A DNA stretch of 5,093 bases from a virus. The notes below the pieces were generated by a model. It had not been told where the DNA came from and searched no databases. It saw nothing but the letters and a program-made list of their open reading frames with translations. Shown here in pieces: positions 1 to 5,093 of this stretch (positions are counted from its first letter, which is position 1; each line of letters opens with the position of its first letter). Both the position numbers and the translations under genes were made by a program. The DNA is taken from IMG/VR virus record IMGVR_UViG_3300038728_000007, positions 1-5,093 of that record; one strand, given 5' to 3'.

Positions 1-127
1 ACTTTCCACCGGAACAGGATCTTCATATACATCATACATTGTCAGCCACTTTTTCGACATACTCATCACCTCGCAGAATTACAGGAATCGGAATACCAGC
101 TTCATCAGCTTCTACCAGCACATTATC
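1..127. repeat. Terminal direct repeat, copy A. It is the assembly overlap of a circular genome with unit length 4966 nt, and it duplicates the 5' end of VP3 and the 3' end of the 98-aa ORF.
   Basis: Base-by-base comparison shows 1..127 is identical to 4967..5093 (offset 4966). The match runs to the last base of the window, so its true extent is set by the window edges. Confidence 0.95.
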
Positions 128-328
128 AGCATTTACAAACATAAGGCCATCAAAACGACCGACCAAACGGAACGAATACTCTTTAGGTTCACCGACAGCG
201 ATCTGAGCCACGAGGCTCTTGAACACACGTTCTGACCACTCAGCGCCAGGCAGCACATAATACTGCATAGCATTCTGACTAACCTCATCATAGAAACAAT
301 ACACTACATCAACAATTCCATTTCTCAT
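32..328 (-). CDS. Hypothetical acidic 98-aa protein. It sits between the J-like gene and VP3, the slot often labelled VP5 or nonstructural in gokushoviruses. Function not recognisable from sequence.
   Basis: ATG at 328..326 is preceded by GAGGAGG with 9 nt spacing. The start overlaps the upstream stop as ATGA (328..325). The 3' end overlaps the VP3 start by 29 nt. Composition is protein-like and rich in D/E. No motif I can name. Confidence 0.7.
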   Translation of the reverse strand: MRNGIVDVVYCFYDEVSQNAMQYYVLPGAEWSERVFKSLVAQIAVGEPKEYSFRLVGRFDGLMFVNADNVLVEADEAGIPIPVILRGDEYVEKVADNV

Positions 329-444
329 AATCTTATACCTCCTCTGTATAATAACGGGCGCACATTCATTTTTTTAGTGCGATCAGCAGTTTTGCGAAAA
401 ATCTGTCTGTCTTTTCCTTTTGAATTCATTTTTTTACCAGCCAT
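325..444 (-). CDS. Small basic DNA-binding/packaging protein, 39 aa, analogous to phiX174 J (gokushovirus ORF8/VP8-like).
   Basis: ATG at 444..442 has AAAGGAGA upstream, with 7 nt from GGAG to the ATG. Product is MAGKKMNSKGKDRQIFRKTADRTKKMNVRPLLYRGGIRL: a K/R-rich N-terminal part and a hydrophobic C-terminal ..LLYRGGIRL that resembles the phiX174 J C-terminus ..ARLWYVGGQQF. The 62-aa track version starts at a TTG (513) upstream of a promoter-like element, so the shorter form is preferred. Confidence 0.7.
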   Translation of the reverse strand: MAGKKMNSKGKDRQIFRKTADRTKKMNVRPLLYRGGIRL

Positions 445-469
445 ATACATTCTCCTTTCTTTTTTCTCA

Positions 470-497
470 ATCATATACCCGGGGGGGGTACTGTCAA
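470..497 (-). promoter_or_regulatory. Sigma70/SigA-type promoter candidate for the J-like / ORF98 / VP3 / VP1 gene block.
   Basis: Minus strand reads TTGACA (497..492), a 16-nt spacer GTACCCCCCCCGGGTA, then TATGAT (475..470). The SD and ATG of the J-like gene follow about 15-25 nt downstream. The spacer contains a C8 run (plus-strand G8 at 481..488). Confidence 0.45.
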
Positions 498-519
498 GTA
501 AAATTTTGCGCAATTTAAT

Positions 520-543
520 AAGCCTAGGATTTTTCCTAGGCTT
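520..543. other. Perfect 10-bp stem-loop (AAGCCTAGGA / TCCTAGGCTT, 4-nt loop). Each arm contains a CCTAGG palindrome.
   Basis: Pairing checked base by base from 520-543 through 529-534, with loop 530..533. It lies just upstream (minus sense) of the promoter candidate and downstream of VP4. On the minus strand it is followed by TTATTAAATT, so it is a possible weak terminator or ssDNA structure. Confidence 0.6.
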
Positions 544-554
544 TCATATCATAT

Positions 555-584
555 ATTATACATAATTGCTATAGTATGAGCACA
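555..584 (-). other. dif/cer-like XerC/XerD recombination site candidate (possible attP).
   Basis: Minus strand reads TGTGCTCATAC-TATAGCAA-TTATGTATAAT. Against E. coli dif (GGTGCGCATAA-TGTATA-TTATGTTAAAT) the left arm matches 8/11 and the right arm 9/11, with an 8-bp central region as in cer rather than 6 bp. Located in a non-coding spacer. Confidence 0.3.
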
Positions 585-623
585 TATTAGTCATGCTATC
601 GCACAACTAACGCATTTAGCTTG

Positions 624-646
624 AGTCTCAGCTAATGGCTGAGACT
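624..646. other. 9-bp stem-loop (AGTCTCAGC / GCTGAGACT, loop TAATG) starting 3 nt beyond the VP4 stop codon.
   Basis: Inverted repeat 624..632 / 638..646 verified by eye. VP4 stop TAA is at 651..649. There is no U-run after it on the coding strand, so it is not a canonical intrinsic terminator. Confidence 0.6.
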
Positions 647-648
647 AA

Positions 649-1671
649 TTAAATATTAGGACGGATCAACATTTTTCCACGGAACTCTTTCGCTTGTTCG
701 TCAATTGCCAACTGTTCGAAATAATCTAATTCTGTTGCATATTCCTTAATTTCCTGTAACATCTTAGCAATTTCCACACGATTCTCTGATAACTTCTCAT
801 ATTCTTGTGGAAAGTCGCGCTCAAAGAACGGATCAAAATACCGAGGAATTGGAGCAGTAAGTCCATCCGGCATCTGAACATAACCTTGTGAAAGCATATC
901 TTTCGCATGAGCATCATAGTATTCCTTACCAATACCTGGACGTCGAGACATAGTGGAATATTCCGGCTCAATACCGAGATCGTCATAGATATGAGCATCC
1001 GTTCCCTTATGCTTCTTGAGCATATACCGGGCAACATAAGCACATGATTTCCAACATACATCTGCAACAACATTATATCCATAAGTCCAGAGCTTGTTGA
1101 GAGTCAAGCTATACCAATACTTGTTACCAGAAAACGAATTCTTAAGGAAGACTAGATCGTTTTCCGGCGGTATCCAATCATACACAATTAAGTGATAATG
1201 AGGTCTGTGAGTTTCTGATCCATACTCACCAGCAAGAAAATAACGTATCTTAATATCTGTCCTTGTTGACTGCTCTTTACGAAGACGTTTCAGAAAATTA
1301 GTTACATCTTCTGGGACAAGCGTATAAGCTAACTTATTACCACGAGTAATATGGTCATCATCATAAGTAAGAGTAAGAAAAAACGCTGTTTGATGGCACT
1401 GTAACTCTAACATAAGTCGAGTAGCCCATCTACGAGAGTAATCTAGACGGCATCCGATGCACTGACCGCATGGAATCATGAACGTTTCCAACTTGCGCCA
1501 GTTTCCAGTTTCTGCTGGATAATCAGACGTATAGAATACATCTGGTTTAGATCTATTTTGATATACATATTTATTCCCGGTTGTTGCTTCCGGGAAAACT
1601 TTTACTTGATTTTTTCCATTGGCTGTCTTAATATTAGTATAAGCGCCACGAAGAGGATGAAAACATGCCAT
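649..1671 (-). CDS. VP4: Replication initiation protein VP4 (HUH rolling-circle endonuclease, phiX174 gpA-like), 340 aa from the preferred start.
   Basis: Motifs seen: FFLTLTY (RCR motif 1), HYHLIVY (HUH, nt 1192..1200), a paired-tyrosine motif YVARY (Tyr codons 1036..1038 and 1024..1026) with the same Y-x-x-x-Y spacing as the phiX174 gpA catalytic tyrosines, and a CGQCIGC cysteine cluster. The N-terminus MACFHPL from ATG 1671 is typical of gokushovirus VP4 and has GAAAGGA 8 nt upstream. The longer ORF to 1740 has no SD, and its extra 23 codons cover a stem-loop plus homopolymer run. Confidence 0.93.
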   Translation of the reverse strand: MACFHPLRGAYTNIKTANGKNQVKVFPEATTGNKYVYQNRSKPDVFYTSDYPAETGNWRKLETFMIPCGQCIGCRLDYSRRWATRLMLELQCHQTAFFLTLTYDDDHITRGNKLAYTLVPEDVTNFLKRLRKEQSTRTDIKIRYFLAGEYGSETHRPHYHLIVYDWIPPENDLVFLKNSFSGNKYWYSLTLNKLWTYGYNVVADVCWKSCAYVARYMLKKHKGTDAHIYDDLGIEPEYSTMSRRPGIGKEYYDAHAKDMLSQGYVQMPDGLTAPIPRYFDPFFERDFPQEYEKLSENRVEIAKMLQEIKEYATELDYFEQLAIDEQAKEFRGKMLIRPNI

Positions 1672-1698
1672 ATACAAAATCCTTTCAATGTGGACTTT

Positions 1699-1728
1699 AG
1701 AGGACTTTCGCAGAGTCCTCTTTTTTTT
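1699..1728 (+). terminator. Intrinsic-terminator-like stem-loop with a T8 run, oriented on the plus strand (antisense to all genes).
   Basis: AGAGGACT (1699..1706) pairs with AGTCCTCT (1714..1721) across a 7-nt loop. The T-run 1721..1728 follows immediately. It lies 13 nt upstream (minus sense) of the VP4 SD. Confidence 0.4.
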
Positions 1729-1737
1729 GGAGTACAT

Positions 1738-1767
1738 CATGCATCTTAGGATGCATGGCTCTTTTTT
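1738..1767 (+). terminator. Second plus-oriented stem-loop with a T-run.
   Basis: CATGCATC (1738..1745) pairs with GATGCATG (1750..1757), loop TTAG, followed by GCTCTTTTTT (T6 at 1762..1767). Confidence 0.35.
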
Positions 1768-1773
1768 AATTTG

Positions 1774-1806
1774 AGTTGTCCGCGTAGCGCGTACAACTGT
1801 TTTTTT
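1774..1806 (+). terminator. Third plus-oriented, GC-rich stem-loop with a T7 run.
   Basis: AGTTGT-C-CGCG (1774..1784) pairs with CGCG-T-ACAACT (1788..1798): 10 bp with one C/T mismatch and loop TAG. It is followed by G plus T7 (1800..1806). Confidence 0.4.
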
Positions 1807-1817
1807 GGTGTCAGTCC

Positions 1818-1846
1818 GACCAGTTACATCAAGTAGGTAACTGGTC
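1818..1846. other. Perfect 10-bp stem-loop 12 nt beyond the VP2 stop.
   Basis: GACCAGTTAC (1818..1827) pairs with GTAACTGGTC (1837..1846) across a 9-nt loop. No T-run on either strand. Confidence 0.6.
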
Positions 1847-1857
1847 TGGGCTATCGG

Positions 1858-2562
1858 CTACCCGAAAATTCTACCAAGCAATCCAGCAGCAGAACCAGCA
1901 AGTGAGCCGATCAAACTCATATTCTGACCACGTTTTGTGGTCTTAGAATTGACATTAGTAGCATATCGAGATGCACCAGAACTCTTATTGCTGGAATATT
2001 TGGTACCAGCGTATCCCATTTGAGAAGCATATCGAGATCCGGCATAACTCATATTAGCAGCATACCGAGAAGCATTCGCAGAATTAAGACTAGCGAACCG
2101 AGACGCTTCTGCTTGAATGTTAGCAGCTTGTAAAGCTGTAGCTTGATGAATGCGAGCAGCTTCGAGAGTAGCATCTCTCTGCATCTGAGCAATAGCTTGC
2201 TGATTTGCGTTATTCTGTTGATTGACAATAATACTTGTCAGCGCAGGAACAACAGAATTATCAGTTTCACCTTTCGCACCGGATGCAGTAGCTCCTGATC
2301 CGGTTTGAGCACCAGAACCTCCAGCACTAAGAACCGGATTAAGTCCGGCTTTCTGGAGATCAAGAACCTCTCTTTGATGAGCAGTCGAAGACTGTTGCGC
2401 TTGCCAATCTCTATTTTTCTGTGCTTCAGCAGAGTTAAAGCGCATTTCTTCACGCGCGAATTCCTGAGACTTCGCGGTATTCTGAGAAGCAATATTTGAT
2501 AACTGATTAGACAATTGATCAGTAGTCATTGTATCACATCCTTTCGAGGTAATACAAGCCAT
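1858..2562 (-). CDS. VP2: DNA pilot / minor capsid protein VP2 (functional analogue of phiX174 H), 234 aa, or 223 aa from the alternative start.
   Basis: Contains the block STAHQREVLDLQKAGLNPVLSAGG that I recognise as the conserved core of gokushovirus VP2. It also has a Gly/Ser/Ala-rich linker, Q/A-rich helical segments, a repetitive C-terminal part and a terminal hydrophobic Gly-rich helix (MSLIGSLAGSAAGLLGRIFG). Start is ambiguous: ATG 2562 has AAGGTGG 12 nt upstream, and ATG 2529 has AAAGGA about 9 nt upstream. Confidence 0.88.
   Translation of the reverse strand: MACITSKGCDTMTTDQLSNQLSNIASQNTAKSQEFAREEMRFNSAEAQKNRDWQAQQSSTAHQREVLDLQKAGLNPVLSAGGSGAQTGSGATASGAKGETDNSVVPALTSIIVNQQNNANQQAIAQMQRDATLEAARIHQATALQAANIQAEASRFASLNSANASRYAANMSYAGSRYASQMGYAGTKYSSNKSSGASRYATNVNSKTTKRGQNMSLIGSLAGSAAGLLGRIFG
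1954..2109 (-). repeat. Degenerate tandem repeat of about 33 nt (11 aa) inside VP2, five units with core SR[YF]A / TKYS.
   Basis: Plus-strand 11-mer GCATATCGAGA occurs at 1961 and 2026, GCATACCGAGA at 2060 and GCGAACCGAGA at 2093, a period of 33-34 nt with a diverged unit near 1994. Protein reads ASRFASLNSAN / ASRYAANMSYAG / SRYASQMGYAG / TKYSSNKSSGA / SRYATNVNS. Confidence 0.65.
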
Positions 2563-2639
2563 CCAGTCTGTAAACCACCTTTTTTCTAACGAAAAAAGGA
2601 AGTTGACAGACTGCCTGTCTCGTATTAATGGTTAATCAA

Positions 2640-2661
2640 GGACAGACGTGATAGTCTGTCC
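2640..2661. other. 8-bp stem-loop GGACAGAC / GTCTGTCC (loop GTGATA) in the VP1-VP2 spacer.
   Basis: Inverted repeat 2640..2647 / 2654..2661 verified. It lies 50 nt downstream of the VP1 stop in minus sense, where it is followed by TTGATTAACC. Its arms are copies of a 7-mer repeated nearby. Confidence 0.6.
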
Positions 2662-2675
2662 CTGTCGTGACATAT

Positions 2676-2704
2676 AATATAGCATAAGCATTGTATCATG
2701 TTGA
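2676..2704 (-). promoter_or_regulatory. Weak extended -10 promoter candidate upstream of VP2.
   Basis: Minus strand reads TCAACA (2704..2699), a 17-nt spacer ending in TGC, then TATATT (2681..2676), which gives a TGnTATATT extended -10. The region is AT-rich, so a chance match is plausible. Confidence 0.25.
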
Positions 2705-2710
2705 ACGATA

Positions 2711-4426
2711 TTACAGAGTGTGCAAGCCCGGGATAGAATGCACTGGCATAACTCTAGTAGTCAAGTTCTTGACGTAAAAATCACCGAATATCTGATCTGC
2801 TAATTTACTTGTAACTGCAAGCGTCCTATCCACATTTGTTTTGTCTTCTTGAATCCACGCAGAAGATAAAGTAGGTTTCTGCGCATAATAATCGGCAAAA
2901 TGCCAAGATTGTAAACTATTGGTAATACCAGAGCGCATTTCTCCAGTAACAATGCTGGTCTTGTAGCGGTAATCTGCCCAAGCTTCTTGGTAACCAAAAA
3001 CATCATCTAAACTACCAAATCCATCGTTATCGTAATAGATTTCACGACTATAAATCGGCTGTTCACCGATGTTAGCCAAAATTGGAAAATAATAATCAAG
3101 ACGATTCTTACGACTCCACATACGCTGTAAACCTTGCTGATATGTGTGATTATAACGAGCGCACATAACACCAATCACGAAACCATGTTCCGTGAAAGAT
3201 TTCACGAAACTATTATCCGTATTAGAAGTCAGAGACATAGCAGCGGTAGTACCGAGCGGAGTTTCACCAGATTCAGACTGCTGTACGATCTGGTGAACAT
3301 TAATTCGTGTACGATTAGCACTTAACAACTCTGGACGCTGTAAGCGACCATCCGGAGAGATAACTCCAAAGTGACCACGTAACAACTCGATATAACGAGA
3401 ACCTGAGCGAGCATCTGTTTCAAGCATCTGCTGAGTTGCGAAAGCAAGACGAAGACTATTCACAGTTAAATAATCAGAACTACCAGCGTCAGCAAAAAGA
3501 TTGCTAGGTGCAAGATCTAAGTCTGACGGATAATTAGAAGTATCAACAGTAGAATAAGATTTTGGAGAAATAGTAGCATAGGCTTTTTTAAAACCAGGCA
3601 AAAGAGGGGAATTACCTTTAAGTCCTATATCATATCCAATACCCTCAGAAAAATCAAAATTAGGCTGACCAGCAAAATTAAAAGTTAATGGAACAGATGA
3701 TCGATTAGAATTATCTTTCCGAGTAACAACAGGGATATCACCGAATAATGAAGAAATCGTAACATCAGCACCTTTCTGAGGTTGCGGCAAAGCAGATGTA
3801 AAATAATCATGCAATTTATTGACTTTCAAAAGCTGTCCGCCTTTTGCAGAATTAGTCTTGTCAAACTCTACATTACCGTCATCAATATCAACCAAAACTT
3901 CATCTTGAAGATTCTCGTCACGGAACCACTCATTCCAAATCAGATTATAAGCATTGATCGGCAATCTACTTATCGAAAGCACTCCAGACGGATTAACCGG
4001 AACTCCAAAATAATCCAGCAAAGACTTCTGGAGAACAGTCTTATCAGCCTTGGAAAATGTCAGCTGAGGAACTTGATATTCTACGTCAGATGTCCACGCG
4101 GAAGTGGATTCACCCATGAATTCTTTCCAATGTGTCCAACAGAGTCGAGACGGTACGAAAAAGTAATACATATCCAAAAATAAGTCGTCCATCGGAGGTG
4201 TGATAAGAGTCTGTAGACGAGTCACGAAAGAAGTCTCTACGTCAAACGTATCGCCAGGTAAAACCTCATCAAGATAAAACGGCACTAAGTCGCCAACATT
4301 GAACGAAGTCTTGATAGAAGAACTACGATCGAACCGGGATCGTGGTCTTTCCAGATCACTCTTATACGTTGAAAAATAACTGTTAGCATCAATCAGATTT
4401 TTTGAAAATGCCAACTTACTCACCAT
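2711..4426 (-). CDS. VP1: Major capsid protein VP1 (Microviridae F-protein family), 571 aa from ATG 4426. The maximal ORF starts at TTG 4447 (578 aa).
   Basis: The N-terminal block PRSRFDRSSSIKTSFNVGDLVPFYLDEVLPGDTF is the signature start of microvirus F/VP1 capsid proteins. Length matches Gokushovirinae VP1. The first codon of the track ORF is TTG with only a weak GGTG upstream. ATG 4426 sits inside the last codons of the upstream 35-aa ORF, so coupling is possible. Confidence 0.96.
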   Translation of the reverse strand: MVSKLAFSKNLIDANSYFSTYKSDLERPRSRFDRSSSIKTSFNVGDLVPFYLDEVLPGDTFDVETSFVTRLQTLITPPMDDLFLDMYYFFVPSRLCWTHWKEFMGESTSAWTSDVEYQVPQLTFSKADKTVLQKSLLDYFGVPVNPSGVLSISRLPINAYNLIWNEWFRDENLQDEVLVDIDDGNVEFDKTNSAKGGQLLKVNKLHDYFTSALPQPQKGADVTISSLFGDIPVVTRKDNSNRSSVPLTFNFAGQPNFDFSEGIGYDIGLKGNSPLLPGFKKAYATISPKSYSTVDTSNYPSDLDLAPSNLFADAGSSDYLTVNSLRLAFATQQMLETDARSGSRYIELLRGHFGVISPDGRLQRPELLSANRTRINVHQIVQQSESGETPLGTTAAMSLTSNTDNSFVKSFTEHGFVIGVMCARYNHTYQQGLQRMWSRKNRLDYYFPILANIGEQPIYSREIYYDNDGFGSLDDVFGYQEAWADYRYKTSIVTGEMRSGITNSLQSWHFADYYAQKPTLSSAWIQEDKTNVDRTLAVTSKLADQIFGDFYVKNLTTRVMPVHSIPGLHTL

Positions 4427-4523
4427 CCTTTCTGTAGTCCGATGCAATCAGCACCAGACTATAAATATTAAGTCCAAGATCCATGAGGATTAGGAAAAAC
4501 ATAGCAAAAAGTAAACCTTCCAT
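4416..4523 (-). CDS. Unannotated 35-aa single-pass membrane peptide (MEGLLFAMFFLILMDLGLNIYSLVLIASDYRKDGE). Candidate lysis or membrane protein, or a coupling leader ORF.
   Basis: ATG 4523..4521 overlaps the VP3 stop as TAATG. GGAGGTGA lies upstream with 6 nt spacing. TAA at 4418..4416 lies 8 nt past the VP1 ATG. Translated by hand from the reverse complement. About 25 hydrophobic residues are followed by a charged tail. Confidence 0.55.
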   Translation of the reverse strand: MEGLLFAMFFLILMDLGLNIYSLVLIASDYRKDGE

Positions 4524-5026
4524 TATACATCACCTCCAACAGATTCCTGTGTATCAGATTTCTGTGGATCAGGTTTCTGAGTATCAGGTTTCTGCTTATT
4601 AAGAGAATCCAGAGCAGAATCGAGAGAACCATCGAGGAAACTCTGAATAAACAGATTTGAATCATAGTTAAACAACTCCTGAACCTCAGACGGAAACTCA
4701 GAGAAACTCTCACGGAACTGTCTTGTCTTCTGCATTGCATCCACAACATCTCGTGGCATCATAGACAAATCCACGCAGTTCTTTTCATCGAAATCAGTAG
4801 AGATTAATCCAGCCTGTAATTTATCCAGAATCACAGCCATATCGCATCCGGGAGCATAACTATTAATATACGCAGATATATCAATATCACGAATCTTAGT
4901 AAGACACTTGCGACCATCTTTACCTACAGATAACTTATACTCTTCACGAGTAGCTGTTCCGGGGTTACTTTCCACCGGAACAGGATCTTCATATACATCA
5001 TACATTGTCAGCCACTTTTTCGACAT
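4523..5026 (-). CDS. VP3: Internal scaffolding protein VP3 (Chlamydia-phage-type scaffold), 167 aa from the preferred start.
   Basis: It lies directly upstream of VP1. The central block DLSMMPRDVVDAMQKTRQFRESFSEFPSEVQELFNYDSNLF follows the pattern I associate with gokushovirus VP3 (P.D...A......F..[LF]P..[IV]...F..D...F). The track start at 5035 is GTG. ATG 5026 is preferred because GAGGTG lies 6 nt upstream. The gene crosses the circular junction (4966/1). Confidence 0.8.
   Translation of the reverse strand: MSKKWLTMYDVYEDPVPVESNPGTATREEYKLSVGKDGRKCLTKIRDIDISAYINSYAPGCDMAVILDKLQAGLISTDFDEKNCVDLSMMPRDVVDAMQKTRQFRESFSEFPSEVQELFNYDSNLFIQSFLDGSLDSALDSLNKQKPDTQKPDPQKSDTQESVGGDV
4550..4594 (-). 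repeat. Three tandem 15-nt units encoding QKPDT / QKPDP / QKSDT at the VP3 C-terminus.
   Basis: Minus strand reads CAGAAACCTGATACT CAGAAACCTGATCCA CAGAAATCTGATACA, followed by a degenerate fourth unit CAGGAATCTGTTGGA (4549..4535). Confidence 0.85.
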
Positions 5027-5093
5027 ACTCATCACCTCGCAGAATTACAGGAATCGGAATACCAGCTTCATCAGCTTCTACCAGCACATTATC
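4967..5093. repeat. Terminal direct repeat, copy B (identical to 1..127).
   Basis: See copy A. Identity was verified across all 127 nt. Confidence 0.95.

Follow-up and report, generated by a model that had tools for sequence, protein, structure and literature searches.

We have identified a clade-specific hairpin (H1), with the features of an intrinsic terminator for antisense transcription, immediately upstream of the replication initiator gene (rep, VP4) of a gut microvirus. It is tentatively proposed that H1 ends a short countertranscript RNA (ctRNA) that damps Rep. The DNA in question is IMG/VR record IMGVR_UViG_3300038728_000007, positions 1 to 5,093 (the whole stretch is called the window here). 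The window begins and ends with an exact 127-nt direct repeat (1-127 = 4967-5093), which indicates a complete circular genome of 4,966 nt, from a gut member of the Microviridae, that was read past its own start. All recognisable genes lie on the minus strand. A ctRNA-like antisense RNA ending at H1 and damping Rep is the single most likely reading of the region, although our confidence in it stays a little short of even, and it is to this degree that the antisense-RNA reading of the hairpin cluster, first put forward in an earlier note on the same DNA, is in part supported. The argument depends on the following features.

649..1671, minus strand: rep (VP4), rolling-circle replication initiator and proposed target of control (Pfam PF23343, E = 3e-20)
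1606..1611, plus strand: -35-like TTGATT in rep codons 21-23, TTG kept in all H1-bearing genomes
1629..1634, plus strand: -10-like TAATAT at 17-nt spacing in rep codons 13-15, with T1, A2, A5 and T6 invariant in H1-bearing genomes
1635..1640, plus strand: alternative -10-like TAGTAT over codons Tyr11-Thr12-Asn13, synonymous sites invariant
1646..1693, either strand: stem-loop around the rep Shine-Dalgarno sequence (SD, 1680-1686) and ATG (1669-1671), present in most lineages
1699..1728, plus strand: H1, 10-bp hairpin AGAGGACTTT-cgc-AGAGTCCTCT (1699-1721) with T8 at 1721-1728
1737..1767, plus strand: H2, palindromic hairpin TCATGCATC-ttag-GATGCATGG (1737-1758), then CTC and T6 at 1762-1767
1774..1806, plus strand: H3, arms 1774-1784 and 1788-1798 (6+4 bp with one mismatch), then G and T7 at 1800-1806
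1807..1854, minus strand: GGTGTCA box and H4, putative viral-strand origin with ACTTG^AT in the loop
1811-1850: H4 hairpin, arms 1818-1827 and 1837-1846

Under the proposed mechanism, an antisense RNA of approximately 80-90 nt would start near 1641-1648, have its 3' end at H1 (1722-1728) and be driven by a modest promoter (TTGnnT-17-TAnnAT) inside rep codons 13-23. The rep SD and AUG, which lie in a conserved stem-loop, would both be perfectly complementary to it, and the RNA itself would adopt the mirror image of that stem-loop, with the terminator 3' of it. By base-pairing to the rep leader it would reduce the translation of Rep or make the mRNA less stable, as ctRNAs do for HUH Rep genes of rolling-circle plasmids. 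Computation shows the hairpins with their polarity and conservation, the stem-loop at the rep start, and a lineage-specific constraint that was lost along with the promoter bases and H1; a working promoter, an actual RNA and a repressive effect on rep are what we infer. The RNA of roughly 90 nt that had been predicted earlier (1641-1728, plus strand) does span both SD and ATG by geometry, a statement that holds only if the RNA exists.

The three hairpins and T-runs of the earlier note were all recovered at the positions given there, and its coordinates for the rep SD and ATG are likewise correct. H1 has 10 pairs (four of them G-C), a 3-nt loop and a stability of -12.1 kcal/mol; H2 has nine pairs and a 4-nt loop; and H3 (-10.6 kcal/mol) is preceded by a TTTGAGT box. 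The T8, T6 and T7 runs stand 3' of H1, H2 and H3 on the plus strand only, antisense to every gene. On the coding strand an A-run stands ahead of each hairpin and no T-run stands behind any, as the earlier note had stated. A strict terminator scan (stems of 8 bp or longer, six or more T in 8) returned two sites on the plus strand and none on the minus strand, as against an average of 0.16 in shuffled genomes (both strands together), and the two sites lie within 60 nt of each other on the same strand; this polarity is non-random. By a terminator consensus scan, H1 and H2 were the only plus-strand sites and by far the best in the genome. For the 220-nt hairpin region, the folding z-scores are -5.6 (RNA) and -5.8 (DNA). 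With its stable G+C stem, short loop (the usual range being 3-8 nt) and U-run directly 3' on the antisense strand, H1 is, on sequence criteria, a genuine intrinsic terminator facing the antisense direction.

It had further been claimed that the three hairpins make up a triple terminator. The hairpin and T-run polarity behind that claim is real, but there is no single unit: H2 is lineage-specific, the T-run of H3 belongs to an origin box, and the different histories of H1, H2 and H3 make the ‘triple terminator’ partly a coincidence. Only H1 is consistently linked to rep.

Approximately 25 related contigs, from gut metagenomes, were available for comparison, and all relatives share the rep start MAC(F/Y)HPLRG. 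In four lineages, a hairpin lies 6-14 nt upstream of the rep SD, and its stem covaries.

Window, L124 and L130: H1 stem AGAGGACT/AGTCCTCT
L001 (Dulem virus 137), L135, L147 and L149: H1 stem GGGGACT/AGTCCCC
L132-134: H1 stems GGGGAGCT, GGGGGACT and GGGGAGACT
L128 and L129 (stem also in L144): unrelated stem AAAGCCGATGTC... at the H1 position, with T7

The antisense-strand tails behind the H1-position hairpins read T8, T8, T7, T7, T7, T6 or T4AT3, and three of the four H1-bearing lineages, namely the groups of the window, L128 and L001, retain a T6-T8 tail. Conservation of the hairpin-plus-T-run polarity, which the earlier note had proposed to check, was thus found, with H1 kept through compensatory changes. 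The terminator scan independently flagged H1 in Dulem virus 137. With the putative RNA aligned by MAFFT, RNAalifold found H1, with four compensatory pairs, but indels made it miss the 5' stem. H1 is absent from the L125 clade (L125, L126, L127, L141 and L143) and is also missing in L079 and L151; a different hairpin with no T-run is found in L131, L142 and L145.

Pairing asymmetry between the strands points the same way. The wobble pairs of the T-run hairpins sit on the antisense strand: L128 and L129 each have a different mid-stem G-T there (-16.6 kcal/mol versus -11.7 kcal/mol on the sense strand), and window H1 scores -12.1 kcal/mol antisense versus -10.3 kcal/mol sense. Hairpins with no T-run fold better on the sense strand. 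During rolling-circle replication the complementary DNA strand is never single-stranded. The wobble asymmetry is a weak but consistent suggestion that the T-run hairpins fold as antisense RNA.

A second line of evidence comes from the coding sequence of rep. Codons were aligned across 11 lineages, and synonymous-diversity residuals were assessed by a permutation test. Synonymous diversity was depleted in codons 1-30 only (residual -0.17 to -0.20, permutation p < 0.0005), and the remainder of the gene stayed within about +/-0.1. A generic 5'-end codon effect was rejected as the cause, since the 5' ends of VP1, VP2 and VP3 have no comparable depletion. The method was validated by its detection of the known overlap between an open reading frame (ORF) of 98 amino acids, ORF98, and VP3. 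The constrained span (codons 4-27) comprises the stem (codons 5-10), the -10 element (13-15) and the -35 element (21-23). Over codons 11-27, the residual was -0.27 in H1-bearing lineages (raw diversity 0.20 versus 0.51 elsewhere) and -0.01 in the L125 clade (0.285 versus 0.283 elsewhere). In a neighbour-joining Rep tree the L125 clade is nested inside the H1-bearing lineages, so that an ancestor with H1 and a single later loss make the simplest history, and the promoter bases, the synonymous constraint and H1 were lost together in this nested clade. No conserved RNA structure was found on either strand inside rep codons 1-40 (the coding 120 nt), and no conserved overlapping ORF was found in the other two sense frames of rep, antisense ORFs not having been compared across relatives. 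A plus-strand ORF of 63 amino acids (1558-1749) was set aside; it has a TTG start and no SD, and it runs through H1 and its T-run.

The promoter hexamers and spacing named in the earlier note (TTGATT-17-TAATAT) are present, but they match the consensus at only 8 of 12 positions, under the threshold of the scan tool. The plus strand holds 18 sites of this quality, compared with 21 +/- 4.6 in shuffles, and the promoter taken alone is therefore no better than chance. What speaks for it is retention. Among H1-bearing genomes, the -35 element takes the forms TTGATT, TTGCTT, TTGTTT and TTGTCT, and the -10 element the forms TAATAT, TATTAT, TAACAT and TACCAT, for an overall pattern of TTGnnT-N17-TA(A/T/C)(T/C)AT. 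The key -10 bases are unchanged despite variation at amino acids 14 (I/N/V/G) and 15 (K/I/M), and wherever position 22 is Gln (8 of the 11 lineages compared), its codon is CAA. Hexamer conservation, which had been named as a test, thus holds for TTG and for T1/A2/A5/T6 through amino-acid changes, but fails together with H1 in the L125 clade, where the -35 TTG has become TTT or CTT and the -10 element reads AACTAT, AAACAT, GAGCAT or GTGCAT. The outgroup L079 has a 9/12 antisense promoter (TTGACG-17-TAGTAT) in the same place, followed by the start-site hairpin and then TTTTTATTTT. Codons 11-13 (TAT ACT AAT) are identical in 10 of the 11 lineages; the sense-strand TATACT is also promoter-like, which makes the strand of this signal ambiguous. 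A stronger antisense promoter in the intergenic region downstream of rep (extended -10 TGCTATAGT, 567-575) was rejected, as it is not conserved in L124 or others.

At the rep start, the SD region pairs with rep codons 5-10 in most lineages, and in L079 a compensatory change has occurred (Arg8 AGA with upstream TCT, instead of CGT with ACG/CCG). In the predicted structures, the mRNA stem sequesters the SD, and the 5' stem-loop of the antisense RNA holds the anti-AUG in a 20-nt loop. The predicted RNA 1641-1729 (89 nt) folds as this 5' stem-loop plus H1 at -24.3 kcal/mol (z = -3.4), as against -21.8 kcal/mol (z = -2.0) for its sense copy. By duplex energy, the start stem is at least as stable on the antisense strand as on the sense strand in 10 of 11 H1-bearing genomes, and more stable on the sense strand in four of six genomes of the L125 clade, a trend that may partly reflect base composition. 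Covariation in this stem is limited, and the strand of pairing is not assignable with certainty; as a structure, a stem that sequesters the SD probably exists in every lineage.

Several results weigh against the ctRNA proposal. By chance, an 8/12 promoter is expected approximately once per 275 nt per strand, and one falls in the 100 nt upstream of H1 with a probability of about 0.3; the phage's own promoters reach 11-12/12. The TTG of the -35 element is the complement of the Gln codon CAA. A sense promoter-like sequence inside rep (TTTTCA-16-TATACT, 9/12) rivals the antisense explanation of invariant codons 11-12; as the cause of the constraint it was rejected, covering codons 3-12 only and having no evident product, and it is kept as a caveat. 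The comparative signal comes from few independent lineages and amounts to essentially one loss event. In L132-134, H1 and the promoter bases are kept and the T-run has decayed to TTTAAAA. A ctRNA needs no three terminators. A permissive Rfam 15 scan gave four sub-threshold unrelated matches and no ctRNA family, which counts against homology, not against an analogous mechanism. Across 52 non-redundant microviruses, antisense-terminator hairpins numbered 23 versus 24, 18 and 24 for the controls, in a crude test restricted to perfect-stem hairpins in non-coding DNA, whose ORF mask hid the window's own H1; with no family-wide excess, the antisense-terminator feature is taken to be clade-specific and not a family trait. 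A survey upstream of rep in the same 52 genomes was dropped, since the order of the genes is not uniform and a gene for a DNA-binding protein often lies directly next to rep. Finally, distant microviruses have A-rich coding-strand spacers between origin and rep with no hairpins. The T-runs could then be mere coding-strand A-runs, an objection already raised in the earlier note, to which these spacers lend some force.

The neighbouring H4 bears on the alternatives and is of interest in itself. Its loop on the coding strand is CTACTTGATG, with a predicted nick ACTTG^AT between 1830 and 1829. H4 and the GGTGTCA box (approximately 45 nt) are 90-95% identical in unrelated microviruses (e.g. L002 1430-1473, L003 113-161 and L004-L123), and the exact 16-mer CCAGTTACATCAAGTA occurs in at least 120 IMG/VR contigs, nearly all of them microviruses of 4-5 kb whose Rep is only 30-40% identical to that of the window. 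The origin of phiX174 is annotated at AACTTG^ATATT (rep_origin 4306); the H4 loop ACTTGAT is identical to the nick context AACTTG^ATA, and both have an A/T-rich stretch 3'. Unlike the phiX174 nick site, which lies inside gene A with no obvious hairpin, the window site is intergenic and, as in CRESS-DNA viruses, sits in a hairpin loop (stem of 10-16 bp). The Rep protein has a YVARY motif, and we liken its YVA(K/R)Y form to that of the phiX174 A protein. The breadth of conservation and the phiX174 nick context in the loop make it very probable that H4 serves as the viral-strand origin, with the putative nick site exposed in the hairpin loop; in much of the uncultured Microviridae, an H4-type hairpin probably has the same role. 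No description of such a hairpin turned up when the literature was searched for its sequence.

H3 appears to belong with this origin. H3-type hairpins stand behind TTTGAGT throughout the clade, with a compensatory CGCG/CGCG to CGCC/GGCG change in L130, and they are found (AGTTATCC..GGATAACT) in the clade that has no H1 as well. The T-run 3' of H3 directly precedes the GGTGTCA box, and a T-run (an A-run in some lineages) before GGTGTCA is widespread even with no H3. On these grounds, H3 and its T-run were assigned to the origin module. H2 is found only in the window and L124; at its position, L130, L127 and L131 have unrelated hairpins with no T-run that are far better on the sense strand (e.g. 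-19.8 vs -14.5 and -17.0 vs -7.8 kcal/mol, sense vs antisense).

A further two-hairpin module was observed at 588-646. It lies downstream of rep in the window, and upstream of rep beside H3 in relatives (L142, L127 and L131). It consists of a hairpin with G-T wobbles on the coding strand only, then TT(A/T)G(C/T)TTGAGT, then a second hairpin. Pairing that is specific to one strand makes this module more plausible than H1-H3 as a complementary-strand origin.

The alternative that survives best, though we consider it unlikely, is that the hairpins are DNA-level replication elements: H1-H3 and the start stem would fold in the viral single strand, as a complementary-strand origin (primed by primase, RNA polymerase or PriA) or as binding sites for Rep or an accessory protein, and the T-runs would be just A-rich spacers. 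The complementary-strand origin of phage G4 is also a cluster of three hairpins. The cluster in the window adjoins the conserved origin hairpin H4, H3 and the T-run/GGTGTCA box are kept even where H1 is absent, the A-rich origin-rep spacers of distant relatives do without hairpins, and the DNA fold is strong (z = -5.8). Capsid-rep hairpins of other microviruses have, moreover, been proposed as complementary-strand origins (PMC9865509). Against this, the antisense G-T wobbles of H1 and the T-run hairpins become A-C mismatches on the viral strand. Judged by the packaged-strand specificity expected of a complementary-strand origin, H1 fails, H2 and H3 are symmetric, and it is the 588-609 hairpin that qualifies; this hairpin and those at the H2 position of L127 and L131, being viral-strand-specific, are better candidates for a single-strand origin. 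The linear constraint over rep codons 11-27, with no conserved structure, is also left unexplained. The cluster resembles G4 oric, the phiX174 PriA site, M13 ori(-) and ssoA in being a stable, non-coding hairpin cluster on the packaged strand, for which a primer RNA would be of plus polarity; unlike in those origins, H1 pairs better on the non-packaged strand, and no CS-6 or RSB-type consensus was recognised.

An explanation through the sense mRNA requires the arrangement of the genes, which is as follows.

5035..4523, minus strand: VP3-like scaffold gene
about 4414..2711, minus strand: VP1, major capsid gene
2529..1858, minus strand: VP2, pilot gene
543..520, minus strand: hairpin closing the operon past rep, ahead of the main sense promoter
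497..470, minus strand: main sense promoter TTGACA-16-TATGAT, 11/12 match, kept in all clade members

L001 has a canonical sense terminator, with a promoter that matches at 12/12 coming after it. One conserved strong sense promoter, together with a terminator or hairpin just past rep, places rep last in a single operon, and all window genes appear to form one operon that rep closes. The main promoter contains a G8 run (481-488; C on the coding strand) in its -35/-10 spacer, and among relatives this run is 6-11 long; spacer length, and presumably promoter strength, therefore differ among them, and this could be slippage-based variation or assembly noise.

In such an operon, the stem could hide the rep SD and the hairpins could act as 3'-exonuclease barriers, or with their A-runs perhaps as endonuclease processing sites, so that capsid mRNA outlasts rep mRNA with no antisense RNA involved. 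This is distinctly unlikely, and less probable than a DNA-level role. It would suit the terminal position of rep behind one strong promoter and before a terminator, as well as the SD-hiding stem, which is conserved in all groups with a compensatory change and is better on the sense strand in the L125 clade; in L132-134, moreover, H1 has no T-run and is slightly better on the sense strand. It does not account for the flush T6-T8 runs on the antisense side, for a constraint in codons 11-27 that lies past the stem and is limited to H1-bearing lineages, or for the retention of TTG/TAnnAT through amino-acid changes.

Insulation is an improbable explanation: the hairpins would serve as terminators only, stopping spurious antisense transcription from the AT-rich rep before it reached the origin and structural genes, with no dedicated RNA. 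Three tandem terminators immediately before the origin, 11 weak antisense promoter-like sites within rep and the low-level antisense RNA of uncertain function in phiX174 are in keeping with it, but it does not predict a localised, lineage-specific constraint in the rep 5' end, and many relatives do without H1 or H2. Coincidence, with GC-rich palindromes falling in a T-rich plus-strand spacer and chance hexamers in AT-rich coding DNA, is very improbable, for although the promoter match is at chance level, family-wide polarity bias is lacking and H2 is lineage-specific, it has to contend with two strict sites where 0.16 were expected, on one strand and within 60 nt, with the covariation of H1 and with the synonymous constraint (p < 0.0005).

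The remainder of the genome includes a gene for a small basic protein and ORF98. Among GenBank records, Dulem virus 137 (lemur faeces) is the closest, with a Rep identity of 73%. The gap between VP2 and rep is 186 nt and is proposed to be the replication and control region. The 3' end of ORF98 overlaps the start of VP3 (window 32-100 / 4960-5035), and its last approximately 20 codons have residuals of -0.3 to -0.4; such suppression is consistent with two real genes overlapping in different frames, and ORF98 is thus probably a genuine gene. Between VP1 and VP2 lie a long imperfect inverted repeat (2550-2627; 37-nt arms, 81% complementary, centre CCTTTTTTTC/GAAAAAAGG) and a second hairpin of 11 bp (2637-2664). 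A scan of the window for tRNA and tmRNA genes found none. Two of the IMG/VR contigs, L126 (approximately 60-130 nt upstream of rep, as a perfect palindrome) and L135, contain a Nextera transposase adaptor (CTGTCTCTTATACACATCT...); these adaptor sequences are assembly artefacts at true contig ends and have no biology.

In many relatives, the VP2-rep gap holds an extra ORF of approximately 70 amino acids (L001 2535-2803, L128 ~1909-2200, L127, L129, L132-134, L141, L143 and L079), which the window does not have. It matches a helix-turn-helix (HTH) domain of the CI-repressor type weakly (E = 0.006) and has its own near-perfect sigma-70-type promoter (12/12 in L001 and 11/12 in L128). A repressor-like gene beside rep in relatives hints at regulated or persistent replication.

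Small RNAs antisense to the leader of an HUH-type rep gene control Rep in rolling-circle plasmids, as RNAII does in pMV158/pLS1 and RNAI/II in pT181. The RNA proposed here would share with these ctRNAs its position antisense to the rep initiation region, an intrinsic terminator just upstream of the SD, a promoter inside the rep 5' end and a target in a stem-loop. It differs in having no sequence or Rfam similarity to them and a weak, coding-constrained promoter, and in being predicted from sequence alone; pT181 acts by transcription attenuation, and no attenuator was seen here. The replicon also differs from a plasmid in being a lytic-type single-stranded DNA (ssDNA) phage, in which copy-number control has no established role. 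The likeness is closer in relatives such as L001 and L128, in which the HTH-like gene with its own promoter ahead of H1 and rep resembles the copG-rnaII-repB arrangement of pMV158. It is a more doubtful possibility that a gut microvirus clade carries a plasmid-style cassette, in which an antisense RNA of approximately 85 nt with a rep-embedded promoter, 5' stem-loop and H1 would throttle Rep. The candidate cassette is joined, in relatives, to the HTH repressor-like gene with its own consensus promoter immediately upstream. Were this so, it would mean copy-number control of the replicative form, possibly with plasmid-like or carrier-state persistence.

Microviridae are among the most abundant gut phages. 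Our literature searches on microvirus antisense terminators returned only a phiX174 transcriptome preprint and a paper on hairpins of roodoodoo- and reekeekeeviruses. Antisense control had been called undescribed in the family; it is correct that, to our knowledge, no regulatory RNA has been defined, but low-level antisense RNA has been reported for phiX174 (Logel and Jaschke, bioRxiv 10.1101/2020.03.05.979765). That RNA is diffuse and makes up 0.2-0.4% of reads, the reads did not drop at the predicted antisense terminators, and the authors speculate that it could limit A/A* production (bioRxiv 10.1101/2020.03.05.979765). Neither a discrete small RNA nor a conserved gene for one was defined there. 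The roodoodoo- and reekeekeeviruses have conserved capsid-rep hairpins upstream of rep, with compensatory changes, described as possible complementary-strand origins (PMC9865509); unlike for the window cluster, neither terminator polarity nor an antisense promoter was considered.

Two outcomes are independent of the ctRNA proposal. Very diverse uncultured microviruses share a hairpin that carries ACTTG^AT in the loop and is probably their viral-strand origin, and the combination of lineage-specific synonymous constraint with the presence of a terminator provides a test for other phage clades. If confirmed, the antisense RNA would bring a known regulatory principle into a family in which it is undescribed. 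A conserved countertranscript, if true, would link the control of microvirus replication to that of rolling-circle plasmids, would fit the ties proposed between HUH plasmids and ssDNA viruses, and would hint at a controlled, persistent replicative form.

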